The notes under the pieces: generated by a model | The model's database searches: none | What the model saw: the letters and a program-made list of their open reading frames with translations, nothing else | Told to the model about the DNA's origin: nothing | Translations under genes and position numbers: made by a program | DNA from: a virus | Direction: 5' to 3' (one strand) | Length of the DNA stretch: 34,562 nt | Virus record (IMG/VR): IMGVR_UViG_3300045988_048182 | Coordinates: 1-34,562 of that record | Part shown: one piece after another, positions 4,718 to 27,296 of the stretch | Layout: each line of letters begins with the position of its first letter | Position numbering within the stretch: the first letter of the stretch is position 1

Positions 4718-4938
4718 TAGTTTTTGCCGTTTTTATGCCGTTTTAGAGAAAAACGCATTAAAAAACATGGTTTTACTCATATATTTAACAATACTTTATT
4801 ATAGCGTATTTAATAATTTTTATCTATAATATCGCACATCGTAGTTTTTAATTGATTGGCCATAACGTAAATTTAAAATTCTAACCACAAAATTATATAG
4901 CTTTACATGAAATTTTTGACGTATTTTTGCCGTCAAAT
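4718..4938. other. Putative attP region (AT-rich, with repeated TTTTNTGCCGT motifs)
   Basis: Non-coding, AT-rich stretch directly downstream of int. TTTTTGCCGT occurs at 4721-4730, TTTTATGCCGT at 4731-4741 and TTTTTGCCGT at 4924-4933. The core site cannot be defined without a host sequence. Confidence 0.4.
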
Positions 4939-4975
4939 AAAAAAGAGGGGTACCGCTTATGGTACCCCTTTATTA
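4939..4975. terminator. Bidirectional rho-independent terminator
   Basis: 11-bp stem AAGAGGGGTACC / GGTACCCCTTT (4944-4954 with 4961-4971). An A-run flanks it on the left and TTTATT on the right. It lies between convergent plus- and minus-strand genes. Confidence 0.75.
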
Positions 4976-6938: not shown

Positions 6939-9900
6939 TCATTTAACCTTACCTAAGCCATATACGCTACGCGCTATATTAGCTTTTCTCATATTAATTT
7001 TATCTAGTTGTTCCCTCTTTTGTTCGCCGCTCATGCGTTCATTATTAATAATAGCCTTAGATGCTTTATTTAAGTTTTTAAGGCTATTACTTGCATTTTT
7101 GAGTTTTGTAAATTCTTTAGCATCGTATCCTTCCGGCCGTTGCCCTGTTAATTTGAACTCATTATGTAGTTTTTCTTGTTCCTTATAATCGTCATATACA
7201 CGTTGAACGCTATTTGATGATTGATAAGGTGCCGCGGTAAACCCTCTTAACCCCGGAGCTTCGTACCATTTTTTAGATGCATTGTTTTCTTTTACGCCAG
7301 ATACCGCATCAACTGCGTTCAAACCTAACCCAGCAAGGCCGCCGCCGTACCCTCTTATTGTATTGTCTACAACATACGGTGAAACGTTTATTTTATCGCC
7401 TACGAATTTTGCTACCTCGCTAGTGTTCGCGCCGTACTGTAGGCGTGCTGGCAAGTTTTCTTGTGATTGCGGAATAATATTGCGTTGTCTAAATAGTGAA
7501 TAATTGGTTGTTGCTTCAACAATAGGTATCATAGCCGTAGGCATAAAACTTGGTGCAAGGCTATCAAATACGCGATCACCAAATCCTTTAAAACCTACGC
7601 TCTTACGATTGTTTTTTTCATCGTCCATGTACTGTAGCATACGCTCAAATGACGTACCGAATAAAACGCCGGCTTCAAACGGTTTAGGAATTCTATACAT
7701 GTTTTCTTTACCCGGAATAATCCAGAATGTATCTTTTTCCCATTGTGGTAGTTCTTGATAGCGCTCATCATCTTTATTCATGTACCATAACATAACGCTT
7801 GGTAACGTGATATAAAGCATAGTTTTAACCGTCATACCGCGCGGATCTTCTTTAAACGCACGCGCCATTTTGTCTGCGCCTTGAATTGTTGCATTAAAGA
7901 AAGCTATTACTTGGTTAGCTTTCTTTGTGTGCGTACCTCTACGGCTGAAATCTAATGTAATATCACGGCTTTCTAGTGCTGCTTCTCGTACTGATAGCGG
8001 GTTTCTTTCTTTACCGAATAAGCGATTACCAACGCCGGTATAACCCTTTCGTGCATTGTCATATTCTGCCAATCGTGTTGCCATTTCTGTTGCTTCACTC
8101 ATAGCGCGCAACGCTTCAATAGGGTTTTTAATCAACTTCGTAAACTTGCTTTCACGCTTCATAATGTCGCGTAATTGGCCGCCTAAATAGTCGCGGTCTA
8201 GCGATACCATTGCCGCATGTGCCGCGCCAGATTTCTTATATTCCCAGAATGTTTGACCTTTCTTTAAGTACAACGCCAAACCTTTGAACGTATCAACAAT
8301 AGGAATAAAACCGTGTTTAGAGTAAATCGCCGCGCCTATCATATCACGAACTGGGTTACGCAAGATAAATTCTGGCGATAATGTAGCACCAGCGCGTAGC
8401 CAGCTTGCCGGATAAGATAAAATCTTCATAATCATATTAGATTGTTCTTTATCCAACATGCGCATAGTTTCGATAAGTTCCGGTGTTGTTTCATACGTTA
8501 CTTTTTCGCCGTTTTCCCAAACGTTAAACGTATTATCCGTTTTTGCCTTATCACCATTTACACGTTCCACTATTTGCCCTACGCCTTTTTTATCGGCTAA
8601 TTTCGCAAATGTACGGCCAACGTGATTGCGTTCTATTGCGTTATAGAATTGGAATGTATTTTTAATAATGCTTTCCAATGGATCTATAATATCGCGCGTA
8701 CTGCCTTTTAACCGTTTAACCGGACTGGATACATCAATAAAACCCTTGCCACCAGATAAGAACGATTGCATGCCTACGTCTGACATATCGCGGAAAAACG
8801 GAATGTAATGCGGGTACATTTTACGCATTGTATGGTACGCTTTAGCCGTCAACATACCCTCTTTAACAAGCATCGTCAATAGATAATCTTGATATTTATA
8901 GATTTCTTTGGCCGCCTTTTGAAAACGTTCATTTCCGGCGTGCTTGCCTAATACAGCAGCATCTTCCGTGTATGAAAACGTTGCTTTTTGTTGGTTCTTA
9001 TGTAGGTCTAAATCGTGTAATGCCACTAGATACGCGGAAAAATCTTTATGTTCTCTCTTTCCGATATCCTTAATAATATCTTTAAACGCTGGTATTTTAT
9101 ATTCCGGCGCGCCGTGTTCAATTAACGTTTCCGCCTTACCGGCCCAACCACGCGCCAGCCACGCTTGCATATACGGATTATCATCAAACGAAATTTTTTC
9201 ACCTGTTTCCCGTTCGACTTGTTCCACTAAATCTTTTAACGGGTTGAGTTCATCGATTAATTTAGTGTATACATCGCTCATCGCTTTTTTGATAAAGTCG
9301 CGCGTTTCACCACGTTTAACCGCATCAATAGCTTGGATCACTTTCCCTTTACTCTCAAACGAAATACTGCCCTTTACACGTTCCGCCCCGCCTTGACGGT
9401 GCCATTCGTGAACCAGTTGAGATAATTTGTTGGTGATACCGTTCAATTCCGGTTCTTTGGCAATAGCTTCCGTAAAGTGCTTATAAAATTCTGGAAATTC
9501 TCTTTTAGCTTTGGCTCGGTCGCTTACGTAATCATGGAAGAATTCCGCATAACCTTCACCGCGTATACCTTCCATACCTAATTTATTGTACGCTTTACCG
9601 AAACGGTCTTGAACTACACGATTAAATTCATTGTTAAAGCGTGGTTCATTACTAAATTTAAAATAGTTGTCTACATAATGCCCTAACTCGTGCATGATAA
9701 CGCGGAAATCGCCATAATTACCGCTACGAATGACATCGGTATATGTATTGTACCAGCCGCCAACGCCTTTTTTACCTAATCGGCCACTTTTAATGCGTTG
9801 ATTAAACAAGGTATTAACCGTATCTATGATTTCTTTACGTGTTACATTTCGCCCTAATCGTTGCACTTCATCAACACCAGTATGTGGCGTTTCCTTACCT

Positions 9901-25816: not shown

Positions 25817-25972
25817 ATGCTAACACTTAAAGACTTAAACACAACTCAAACATGGAACTTTGAAAACAAAACAGATGCTTCCGATTTCATTAGTACAATG
25901 AGTTTCGGTTTTGAATGGCAATTAATCGACAATAACACAAACGAAGTTATTGCTTGCCACTACTTCGAATAG
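25817..25972 (+). CDS. Small acidic hypothetical protein (51 aa), not in the ORF track
   Basis: AAGGAG at 25803-25808 lies 8 nt before the ATG. Translation is MLTLKDLNTTQTWNFENKTDASDFISTMSFGFEWQLIDNNTNEVIACHYFE, with 8 acidic and 2 basic residues. Confidence 0.6.
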   Translation: MLTLKDLNTTQTWNFENKTDASDFISTMSFGFEWQLIDNNTNEVIACHYFE

Positions 25973-26032
25973 CAAATAAAGGCGGTAGATAACCACTACC
26001 GCCAACTATTTAAACCAAAGGAGAATACAACA

Positions 26033-26350
26033 ATGCAAATGACTATTCAAGAAATTAAAAACGCGATCAAATACAACGAACTAAACAATATCGAAACATT
26101 ACAAGCCGCATATACCGGCGTTAAATACAACAATGACGGCATAATTCAAACACTAGGTTATGACGATTTAAGCAACATTGTTATGATGCTTCGTTATCTA
26201 GCTGAAAAATGCGAGTTACTACGCCGCCGTACTAACTCAATATATGATGCGTTCGCTGCATTTAACCTACGCGAAACAATATTCGATACTATAGACGAAT
26301 ATCAGAAAGAAATGAATAACCAAATACGCCAAATGTTAGCCGCTAGATAA
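26033..26350 (+). CDS. Hypothetical protein (105 aa), second gene of the plus-strand island
   Basis: AAAGGAG lies upstream of the ATG and a terminator follows the gene. The composition looks helical. No motif recognised. Confidence 0.6.
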   Translation: MQMTIQEIKNAIKYNELNNIETLQAAYTGVKYNNDGIIQTLGYDDLSNIVMMLRYLAEKCELLRRRTNSIYDAFAAFNLRETIFDTIDEYQKEMNNQIRQMLAAR

Positions 26351-26363
26351 TAGCGGCTTTTTT
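26338..26363 (+). terminator. Rho-independent terminator of the island
   Basis: AGCCGCTA-GATAA-TAGCGGCT followed by TTTTT. The stop codon lies in the loop. Confidence 0.8.
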
Positions 26364-26464
26364 AATTACTCAAAACCAAACACGGGGCAAACGTTCCATA
26401 ACTAGTATCAAACAGATGCAGCGCGTTCAGTTTTCAATAATCAAATGTTACTTTTATACAAGAA

Positions 26465-26508
26465 ATGGGGTATATCGTCGCGGATACACCCCATTTTATT
26501 TTTGTTTT
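26465..26508. terminator. Second strong hairpin terminator (plus orientation has a long T-tract; minus orientation also plausible)
   Basis: 12-bp stem ATGGGGTATATC / GATACACCCCAT (26465-26476 with 26483-26494). It has one A-C mismatch that becomes a G-U pair on the minus strand. On the plus strand TTTTATTTTTGTTTTATT follows; on the minus strand TTCTTGTAT follows. Confidence 0.65.
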
Positions 26509-26521
26509 ATTCTATTTTATT

Positions 26522-26679
26522 GCATATTCTAAACAAATACCGATAGTTCTCATGCGCTCTTATGAAACTTTTGAAACGATACAAGTATTCAACCACGAAA
26601 AAACAAATGAAATTTAACAACAGCAAAATTATTTATAGTATGAAGGTTTTCACTATATCGGTATTTGTTTACAGTATGC
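26522..26679. repeat. Long-range inverted repeat (24 of 26 positions) enclosing a 104-nt loop
   Basis: The left arm GCATATTCTAAACAAATACCGATAGT (26522-26547) pairs with the right arm ACTATATCGGTATTTGTTTACAGTATGC (26652-26679). Confidence 0.8.
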
Positions 26680-26681
26680 AA

Positions 26682-26706
26682 TTGCGGGGCGTTGTGTACC
26701 CCGCAA
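26682..26706. other. GC-rich hairpin TTGCGGGG-N9-CCCCGCAA
   Basis: 8-bp perfect stem read directly from the sequence, with no adjacent T-tract. Confidence 0.6.
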
Positions 26707-26766
26707 CTACTAACCTGTTTACCTAAGGAGAGAATGCAAATGCTCAACTAGCACTTTACACCTTAT

Positions 26767-26831
26767 ATTATACTATATATGGCGTTTCCACCTATTTCCG
26801 ATATAGTCCGATATAGTCCGAATTATACCGA
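26767..26831 (-). promoter_or_regulatory. Candidate activator-dependent late promoter: four tandem 10-bp repeats upstream of a TATAAT, with no -35
   Basis: The minus strand reads TCGGTATAAT, TCGGACTATA, TCGGACTATA, TCGGAAATAG (plus-strand 26792-26831), then 19 nt, then TATAAT (26767-26772). The last repeat overlaps the stop codon of the DUF1492-like gene. Confidence 0.45.
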
Positions 26832-27296
26832 TTTAGCAGTATACATACACGCATAATATGTATGGTGCAAATAATAGCCAACTTGTACAAGGCCGGCCGT
26901 TTTTATTTCTGCCGCTTGCGACTTTTCCAAATCTGTAAAGTATCGCGCATGCTTCGCGCTTTTGCCGTCGATGTATTCGCGTAGCAATAAAATATTTGCT
27001 TTCCCTGTGGTGCATGTGTTGATGATATCCGCTGCGGTTTCCCGCTCATCAATTAATGCGCCTATTTCTTTGTGTACTGCATCGCGTTTGCTTTCAAGGC
27101 GTATAATCTGTTGTTCCAATCCGCCAGGTGTTCCGCCACCTGTTAGGTGTTCTTTGGAATAATCAACGGCGCCTATTGTTGTAATATCTGATTGTAAATG
27201 CTTTAGATCTTCCTTCAATGAGTTAATTTTCATTGTGATTAACTTGATAGGCTCTAAATATTCTTTTGCTATTTCCCTGTACTCTTTATCAGTCAT
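26823..27296 (-). CDS. DUF1492-like putative late-gene transcriptional regulator (sigma region-4-like family)
   Basis: The architecture is YL...KINSLKEDLKHLQS...LTGGGTPGG...IIRLESKRDAVHKEIGALIDERETAADIIN...LLLREY. This resembles DUF1492 proteins encoded just before the packaging genes in Firmicutes phages. Confidence 0.45.
   Translation of the reverse strand: MTDKEYREIAKEYLEPIKLITMKINSLKEDLKHLQSDITTIGAVDYSKEHLTGGGTPGGLEQQIIRLESKRDAVHKEIGALIDERETAADIINTCTTGKANILLLREYIDGKSAKHARYFTDLEKSQAAEIKTAGLVQVGYYLHHTYYACMYTAKSV

Follow-up and report, generated by a model that had tools for sequence, protein, structure and literature searches.

Late-gene control is well understood in a few phages only. In phages of Gram-positive bacteria, the Ltr activators (RinA, ArpU, LtrA, LtrB/DUF1492 and LtrC) act at the terS promoter, and direct repeats just past the activator gene are the demonstrated binding sites for the RinA, LtrC and ArpU families, as described by Quiles-Puchalt et al. 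2013 (PMC3753634). For phages of Negativicutes, the literature searched gave no publication on how late genes are controlled. The region reported here belongs to the IMG/VR record IMGVR_UViG_3300045988_048182, a complete virus record of 34,562 base pairs (bp) with terminal repeats, referred to below as the window. The region lies between the gene of a 157-amino-acid (aa) regulator and the terminase genes, on the minus strand, which carries almost every gene of the window, and it offers a concrete layout consisting of an activator site, a leader RNA of about 305 nucleotides (nt), a terminator, a mimic of a host ribosomal RNA (rRNA) helix (termed M2) and the late genes. By comparison with related phages, a conserved, covarying and strand-specific RNA architecture, the copy of the host helix and the gene order were shown, and the region is probably a late-transcription control region in which Ltr activation, the leader, read-through and the action of host factors at M2 would be combined.

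M2, which was absent from the feature list of the initial annotation, is an 82-nt hairpin (26362-26443, minus strand) just after the terminator. Its 5' strand contains the core UUGAAAACUGAAC (26437-26425, minus strand), an exact 13-nt match to the leader of the host rRNA (rrn) operon that was also found in the rrn leaders of several Veillonella genomes. Its 3' strand contains the core UGUUUGGUUUUGAG (26382-26369, minus strand), a match to the host trailer strand, and corresponds to the host 16S-23S spacer just past the 3' end of 16S (UGUUCGGUUUUGAG). When M2 was compared with the 6.5-kb rrn operon, the strongest matches (E-values of ~0.01-0.05) fell on the leader and trailer strands, with 13-14 of 14 positions identical in each. 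The two host segments matched in this way pair together as the pre-16S leader-trailer helix, and M2 and the host have the same geometry of 10 bp, a mismatch and 13-14 bp (13 bp in M2) as well as the same choices of non-Watson-Crick positions, namely a G·G mismatch and two U·G wobbles. The fold is specific for one strand, with -31.7 kcal/mol (z-score z = -6.8) for the minus strand and -11.4 kcal/mol (z = -1.75) for the plus strand. M2 was present in 83 of the 85 scannable loci, at 50-119 nt, and was absent only in L059 and L087, two relatives in which the late open reading frame (ORF) abuts the terminator. Among 34 phage versions and the host, the 21 aligned pairs of M2 were paired in 97.7% of cases, with many G·U pairs.

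M2 was first read as a simple single-stranded boxA, and this reading was revised after the 3' partner and the matches to the host trailer strand were found. Both RNase III and NusB are encoded in the host genomes, and NusB scored above the curated cut-off in two Veillonella genomes. By analogy with the host helix, we infer that M2 engages the host factors of the pre-16S helix, most likely RNase III or another helix-recognising factor; RNase III is favoured over the Nus factors because both strands and the helix geometry have been kept, while 2 of the 12 positions of the boxA core itself differ. M2 may also have both an RNase III and a Nus role, as the helix has in the host. In the literature searched, no late operon was described as beginning with a sequence copy of the leader-trailer helix of host rRNA, and a Bacillus-subtilis-style helix pattern found nothing in the viral contigs.

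Two further observations concern rRNA-like segments elsewhere in the leaders. In 14 relatives (the L019 type), a second rRNA-helix mimic (CAUUGAAAACUGGGGCC...GGCUCCGGUUUUGAGUG; ~4790-4895 in L019) lies between the long-range helix P3, described below, and the terminator, and these relatives thus carry one mimic on either side of the terminator. A boxA-like stretch in the P3 interior of the type-B relatives is weak, and it is absent from the type of the window.

For the comparison of leaders, a protein-guided scan of the viral contigs was done, by which 80 loci with regulators 77-98% identical to that of the window and 4 more distant loci (61-70%) were obtained. In BLAST comparisons, homology spans the regulator gene and the repeats behind it, stops exactly after the promoter hexamer TATAAT (26767) in most loci and resumes near 26545. 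The stretch between these two positions is replaced in the relatives rather than absent, with a different sequence and the same architecture. The promoter and the terminator, used as anchors, bound the leader in all 82 sequences (the window and 81 relatives), at a distance of 173-465 nt and mostly of 293-327 nt, and the leaders sort into five main sequence types and a few variants. Single-sequence folds of all five main types have the same parts, namely a 5' hairpin (P1), a CU-rich single strand, a GC-rich hairpin (P2), P3 around ~110 nt, an A-rich linker and the terminator hairpin.

The in silico folding and covariance analysis proposed in the initial annotation came out in favour of a structured RNA. 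In the window, the minus strand of 26763-26449 (315 nt) folds at -91.6 kcal/mol (z = -6.0), and the plus strand at -76.7 kcal/mol. The arms of P3 are at 26656-26682 (5' arm) and 26519-26545 (3' arm, both on the minus strand), each being 27 nt, with 25 of 27 positions complementary and 110 nt between them; the inverted repeat first described as 26 nt at 26522-26547 and 26652-26679 (24 of 26) therefore exists, with these corrected boundaries. Covariation was assessed with a 59-sequence alignment, from which RNAalifold recovers P3 and the terminator. The 24 aligned pairs of P3 were paired in 99.2% of cases, and compensatory double changes, for example GC to AU, AU to CG and CG to UA, were found in 9 of them. 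As a control, the partners of all the modelled helices, 99.4% paired in register, were slid by one to three columns, after which 36-57% were paired. Wobble pairs were counted in the sense of the minus strand, and G·U far exceeds A·C both in P3 (159 and 9, respectively) and in the terminator (63 and 0, respectively), which places the RNA on the minus strand. The covariation of this new structured RNA is unusually clear.

Although the 58 distinct 5' domains have about four unlike sequences at P1 (26733-26762, minus strand), most of them are predicted to fold this hairpin, which was also seen in the fold of the window. P2 (26680-26708, minus strand) has the 8-bp arms 26682-26689 and 26699-26706, in agreement with the GC hairpin recognised initially at 26682-26706, and its helix is built in the relatives from unlike sequences (UGCGGGG/CCCCGCA, CGCUGGG/CCCAGCG, GGGGAAC/GUUCCCC and GGGGAG/CUCCCC). 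Retention of the helix by unlike sequences was used as the evidence for P1 and P2, which the MAFFT alignment shifts between types. The AU-rich interior of P3 (26546-26655, minus strand) varies between types and tolerates insertions of 100 nt (L010 and L075) and deletions (L025 and L067). In L005 (~4790-4940), two P3-like long helices stand in tandem, with outer stems alike and inner sequences different, which suggests that P3 is a duplicable module. With its 24-27 bp, P3 is also a plausible RNase III substrate.

Against Rfam 15, no family was assigned to the leader, the best scores being 14.5 bits for FuFi-1 (threshold 59.6, E = 5) and 22.8 bits for sraA (threshold 56); no match with an E-value of 1 or better was found in six relatives, and no match at gathering score in the whole window. 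Comparison of P1-P3 with the whole rrn operon gave no similarity. The leader of ~300 nt is a new RNA motif, absent from Rfam.

The regulator gene (26823-27296, minus strand) matches the PHROGs family phrog_36, 'transcriptional regulator', with an E-value of 5e-12. Among its remote homologs (n = 51), 34 match PF07374 (DUF1492) and 8-9 match Sigma70_r4, and the profile of the regulator family matches region 4 of the sigma factor FliA with an E-value of 3e-5; the earlier label of a DUF1492-like regulator is reasonable in so far as it is reached through these remote homologs. No Q family was found in the scans of the regulator with Pfam, PHROGs and NCBIfam. Directly behind lie five phased CGGW repeats with 10-bp spacing (26787-26830, minus strand; the presumed activator site), namely CGGT at 26830-26827, CGGA at 26820-26817, 26810-26807 and 26800-26797, and TGGA at 26790-26787. 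Four such repeats had been recognised at 26792-26831, to which the fifth, reaching 26787, is added here. The block starts within the last codons of the activator gene and overlaps its stop codon, and the proximal unit occupies the -35 position. The triple CGGA-N6 pattern occurs once in the 34.6-kb genome (0.06 matches expected by chance), and the CGGW repeats are retained in all the relatives, including those with a regulator only 61-70% identical.

As annotated before, the minus strand has a -10 hexamer, TATAAT (26772-26767), but no -35, and transcription is predicted to start at ~26762-26759; a promoter scanner gave no match at this hexamer. As there is no -35, the promoter is probably activated rather than constitutive. 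By its sequence relationships, the regulator probably groups with the Ltr late activators, and we infer that it binds the CGGW repeats and activates the -10-only promoter. With a regulator from outside the Q family and no -35 in the promoter, the mechanism resembles Ltr-type activation rather than Q loading, and no second Ltr-dependent promoter is visible, because the CGGW site is unique in the genome. As a separate observation, the word CGGUAU, which four of the five sequence types have within the 3' arm of P3, has the letters and orientation of the first promoter repeat (CGGTATAA), and this may be chance.

At the 3' end of the leader, an A-rich linker (26518-26497) is followed by the terminator hairpin (26496-26463) and directly by an interrupted U-run, UUUCUUGUAU (26462-26454), all on the minus strand. 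The arms of the hairpin (26463-26476 and 26483-26496) are complementary at 13 of 14 positions, and it folds at -20.2 kcal/mol (z = -4.9) on the minus strand; the minus-strand preference of the 12-bp hairpin first placed at 26465-26494 agrees with the G·U bias, and its arms were extended. The 12 aligned pairs were paired in 99.6% of cases, with one compensatory pair (GC to AU). A U-rich tract also follows the hairpin on the plus strand, and the hairpin could act in both directions. The stretch UUGUAUAAAAG (26451-26461, minus strand) is conserved beyond what a U-run needs and could be part of the terminator, a spacer before M2 or a -10 element.

A gap of 38-45 nt, with no plausible promoter in it, separates the U-run of the terminator from the homolog of the first late ORF (62 aa) in L059 and L087, and the late genes would therefore be reached by read-through. 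From this spacing and the uniqueness of the activator site in the genome, the late mRNA would start at the repeat promoter. Termination at the interrupted U-run may be partial by design. More terminators lie past the portal and capsid genes. Terminator-like sites in the late operon are not significantly enriched (25 found, 19 ± 5 expected), and processive antitermination is argued for by a few individual terminators only. A late promoter with a leader of ~300 nt and a terminator, analogous to pR'-tR' of lambda, had been among the initial proposals; its layout agrees with the anchors, the covariation, the G·U bias and the spacing in L059 and L087, and its Q component is not supported.

According to the favoured mechanism, the Ltr-type activator would bind the five CGGW repeats at its own stop codon and turn on the -10-only promoter, and transcription from ~26760 would yield the non-coding leader of ~305 nt with P1, the CU stretch, P2, P3, the A-rich linker and the terminator. 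Polymerases stopping at the terminator would release the leader as a small RNA, and those reading through would enter the late operon, with the Cys-rich ORF, the terminases, the portal gene and the rest. The read-through RNA would then fold M2, where a cut, most likely by RNase III, would part the leader from the late mRNA; modification of RNA polymerase by Nus factors (boxA-type) at M2 would be an alternative or an extra role.

Several findings weigh against this mechanism. For M2, the count of double changes owes much to the single host row, and the boxA core GAUUAUUGAAAA differs from that of the host leader (GAUCUUUGAAAA) at 2 of 12 positions, the host spacer having GUUCUUUGAAAA. P3 is absent in L067 and M2 in L059 and L087, and since each is missing in at least one relative, no module beyond P1, the CU stretch, P2 and the terminator is strictly essential, provided that these contigs are viable. 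The regulator itself has no direct match in Pfam or NCBIfam, its DUF1492 assignment being made via remote homologs only. The U-run after the hairpin at 26496-26463 is interrupted, this hairpin was not called in the window by a consensus terminator scanner, and UUGUAUAAAAG contains TATAAA, a possible -10 of an unrecognised promoter. In the window, ~750 nt of an antisense accessory cassette separate M2 from the late genes. Between the two plus-strand cassette genes, a strong terminator-like hairpin on the sense strand (GGCGGUAGUGGUUAUCUACCGCC followed by UUUAUUUGCU; 25981-26003, minus strand) would have to be passed by late read-through transcripts, and a weak promoter-like site is present at 25750-25721.

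The distance to the late genes in the window also bears on the strongest rival, by which the region would produce a stand-alone, trans-acting late small RNA (sRNA) of ~305 nt, whose CU stretch would pair with the Shine-Dalgarno regions of host or early phage mRNAs, the late genes being promoted separately. The late genes are ~770 nt further on, past the opposing cassette, and the unit has its own activator-dependent promoter and terminator. A terminated RNA of ~305 nt would be an unavoidable product, and a stand-alone structured RNA had been among the initial proposals. The CU-rich stretch, UUCUCUCCUU in the window (26725-26734, minus strand) and AAUUCUCCU in relatives, is conserved in alignment A1 and is unpaired in most single-sequence folds; being anti-Shine-Dalgarno-like and complementary to GGAG, it could, where exposed, seed anti-Shine-Dalgarno pairing in cis or in trans. 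Shiga-toxin phages offer a precedent, their short pR'-tR' transcript acting as a regulatory sRNA (PMC7547250). A separate late promoter, however, has no room in L059 and L087, and the CGGW activator site is unique in the genome. An sRNA as the main product is judged rather unlikely; should the RNA combine the two roles, this reading and the leader model would both hold.

The same leader could be read as a conformational attenuator, riboswitch-like or of the 'zipper' kind, in which upstream pairing with the 5' arm of the terminator would extend the long stem. Its layout of a weak upstream hairpin, a long imperfect stem-loop and a terminator is that of the zipper of pLS20 (PMC13401043), and in the type-B relatives some bases can pair either in the outer part of P3 or in an extended P2. 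With the 3' arm withheld, the 5' arm of the terminator gains only 1-5 kcal/mol from upstream pairing, as against about -18 to -20 kcal/mol for the hairpin; the change of the terminator from GGGG to GAGG is unmatched in the CU stretch or P2, and no Rfam riboswitch was found. The alternative antiterminator or zipper fold, with this small gain and without covariation, was rejected, and attenuation of this kind is regarded as improbable.

An element at the level of DNA, namely a pac or cos site, a secondary origin or a set of sites for a dimeric protein, would suit the position just upstream of the terminase genes and the long inverted and phased direct repeats, and a pac or secondary origin region had been considered in the initial annotation. 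Nearly every helix mismatch is a G·U pair when read on the minus strand and would be a plain mismatch on DNA or on the other strand, and M2 folds at -31.7 kcal/mol on the minus strand, as against -11.4 kcal/mol on the plus strand. The arms are replaced wholesale with their pairing kept, which fits RNA better than a protein site. The motif ATACCGAT is common to the left arm and the repeat region in the window, so that the core said to be shared by arms and tandem repeats is real there, and it is lost in the relatives. A single DNA-binding protein for repeats and arms is likewise not supported, because the arms vary by type (GGCGCUGGC/GUCAGCGC) and the CGGA repeats are constant. With selection on RNA pairing of one strand only, a function of this kind is very improbable.

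Equally poor is the prospect of a type I toxin-antitoxin system, in which a hydrophobic peptide from the plus strand (26465-26617, MGYIVADTPHFIFVLF) would be countered by the minus-strand RNA as antisense antitoxin: an ORF with a hydrophobic N-terminus does begin inside the terminator hairpin in most relatives, and Bacillus prophages have type I systems that depend on RNase III, but the start codon has no Shine-Dalgarno sequence, the ORF varies from 43 to 95 aa with shifts of frame among close relatives, the GGGG-to-GAGG pairing change turns MGY into MRY, and the hydrophobicity is expected by chance from the U-rich complement of the A-rich linker. The plus-strand ORF at 26465-26617 was judged non-coding, its frame and length being unconserved. 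Chance ORFs of at least 50 aa fill the region; since the short ORFs differ in frame and length among close relatives and their residue changes track the changes in RNA pairing, the whole region is taken as non-coding.

For the distribution of the helix copy, the viral contigs were scanned with a pattern of the two M2 core strands, by which 76 loci were obtained, a few tens of which could be explained by chance (rough estimate). A single family of 66-nt hairpins, which have the core and the G·G mismatch of M2, accounts for 39 of the 76. This family was observed in unrelated Firmicutes phages (L097:4181-4248 and 38 further loci among L098-L172; UUUUGCUUUGAAAACUGCAUCAAAC...GUUUGGUGUGGUUUUGAGAGCAAAA) that have SPP1-type portals and terminases quite unlike those of the Veillonella phages. 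The sense strand of the hairpin folds at -33.9 kcal/mol and the antisense strand at -18.8 kcal/mol. The element always stands directly after a hairpin, most of these hairpins being terminator-like, of varied sequence and with a U-run running into the element. The terS/terL genes, placed by tblastn in 35 of the 39 loci, are on the same strand, 0.3-2.7 kb downstream of it, and in the 19 loci where a regulator homologous to that of L097 was found, the element lies 0.6-4 kb downstream of this regulator. In the three loci that were inspected, the regulator has direct repeats of its own and a long non-coding stretch behind it. The 66-nt family had no match in Rfam (four loci) and none in the GenBank phage collection. 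Separately, a conserved GC-rich structure (GGAGGUCGGACAGG...CCGACGACCGACCUGCG...GGCCGGCCCAUAUUUUUU) was seen after the direct repeats of the regulator in L158 (oriented copy, ~9400-9570), L148 and L143; it has no Rfam match and has the look of a further, uncharacterised late-leader RNA.

That the element recurs in an unrelated phage group suggests a general strategy and not an accident, and the copied helix suggests that the Veillonella phage borrows the rRNA machinery for the expression of virion genes. We tentatively propose, at less than even confidence, that phages of Negativicutes and of other Firmicutes head their late operons with a miniature pre-16S helix by which the rRNA machinery (Nus factors or RNase III) is enrolled, as a new class of cis-element. 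If this is true, the copy of the pre-16S helix would work in the Veillonella phages together with the leader of ~300 nt; the copying of the rRNA helix suggests a means by which the longest operon of these phages may be processed or protected, and, if confirmed, it would provide a portable control element for the genetics of Veillonella and other Firmicutes.

The window is a temperate Veillonella phage. The link to the host was made through a V. parvula metagenome-assembled genome (MAG) with a related prophage, the regulator of which is 85% identical to that of the window, and among 121 species-representative genomes of the host family the element was found in this MAG only. Behind M2, the small accessory cassette (25817-26350, plus strand) lies between the regulator and leader region and the packaging genes. 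The first late gene is a 62-aa Cys-rich ORF (25684-25496, minus strand; phrog_33034), followed by the small terminase (25483-25112, minus strand; ORF and profile matches) and the large terminase (25128-23767, minus strand). The Cys-rich ORF heads the late operon directly before the small terminase in all the relatives. A tRNA scan of the window found none, and the region had no match in the GenBank phage collection.

Among the known systems, the Ltr modules resemble the promoter part of the locus most closely. Here, too, the activator gene ends the replication module directly upstream of the packaging genes, the repeats come right after the coding sequence, the remote homologs are DUF1492 and sigma region 4, and, as in the Ltr modules, the repeat block is conserved with the activator and the downstream DNA is swapped in a modular way. 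In contrast to those modules, the host is a Negativicute, the protein itself falls short of Pfam DUF1492, and five 4-nt cores phased at 10 bp take the place of the about three 7-nt repeats given for the Ltr sites (PMC3753634). Between the promoter and the late genes lie a covarying leader of ~305 nt, a terminator and an rRNA-helix mimic, to none of which the searched passages of PMC3753634 refer. The activator, repeats and promoter are probably a new member of the Ltr kind.

The lambdoid module of Q, pR', 6S RNA and tR' has in common with this locus the order of regulator gene, promoter, short terminated transcript and late genes, with the terminator standing before the late genes at ~300 nt from the start site, and here, too, termination may yield a transcript with its own function, like the StxS sRNA (PMC7547250). 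It differs in that the regulator described here is not Q, the leader is longer and far more structured, and no sigma-dependent pause element was identified. The cATT/conAn system of pLS20 (PMC13401043, PMC8191782) likewise has a long leader of a very long mobile-element operon in which a long-stemmed hairpin is followed by a terminator, with further terminators inside the operon, but no complementarity extending the long stem into the terminator was seen here, nor any relationship in sequence or Rfam family, conAn genes not having been searched for.

M2 also compares with the boxB-boxA-boxC antitermination signals of rrn leaders, with the pre-16S leader-trailer helix, which RNase III cuts (PMC10250234, PMC6582327), and with the boxA of lambda nut. 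It comes after a hairpin, as boxA does after boxB, and both strands of the rrn helix, one of them boxA-like, are copied exactly in it over 13-14 nt together with the G·G mismatch and the wobbles. In contrast to the rrn operon, the strands are 50-90 nt apart in the phage rather than 1.6 kb as in the host, M2 heads a protein-coding operon, the boxA core is off at 2 of 12 positions, and the preceding hairpin has a terminator-like U-run. RNase III sites and boxA elements of phages are already known kinds, the former being present in the early and late mRNAs of T7, in the N leader and sib of lambda and in the early RNAs of SP82. To our knowledge, none of these RNase III sites copies the sequence of the helix at which host rRNA is processed. 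The likeness of M2 to them lies in the long imperfect hairpins of polycistronic phage transcripts; both M2 (10 bp, G·G, 13 bp) and P3 (24-27 bp) would provide double-stranded RNA of about two turns or more on the transcribed strand, as RNase III sites do, and cleavage at M2 is predicted.

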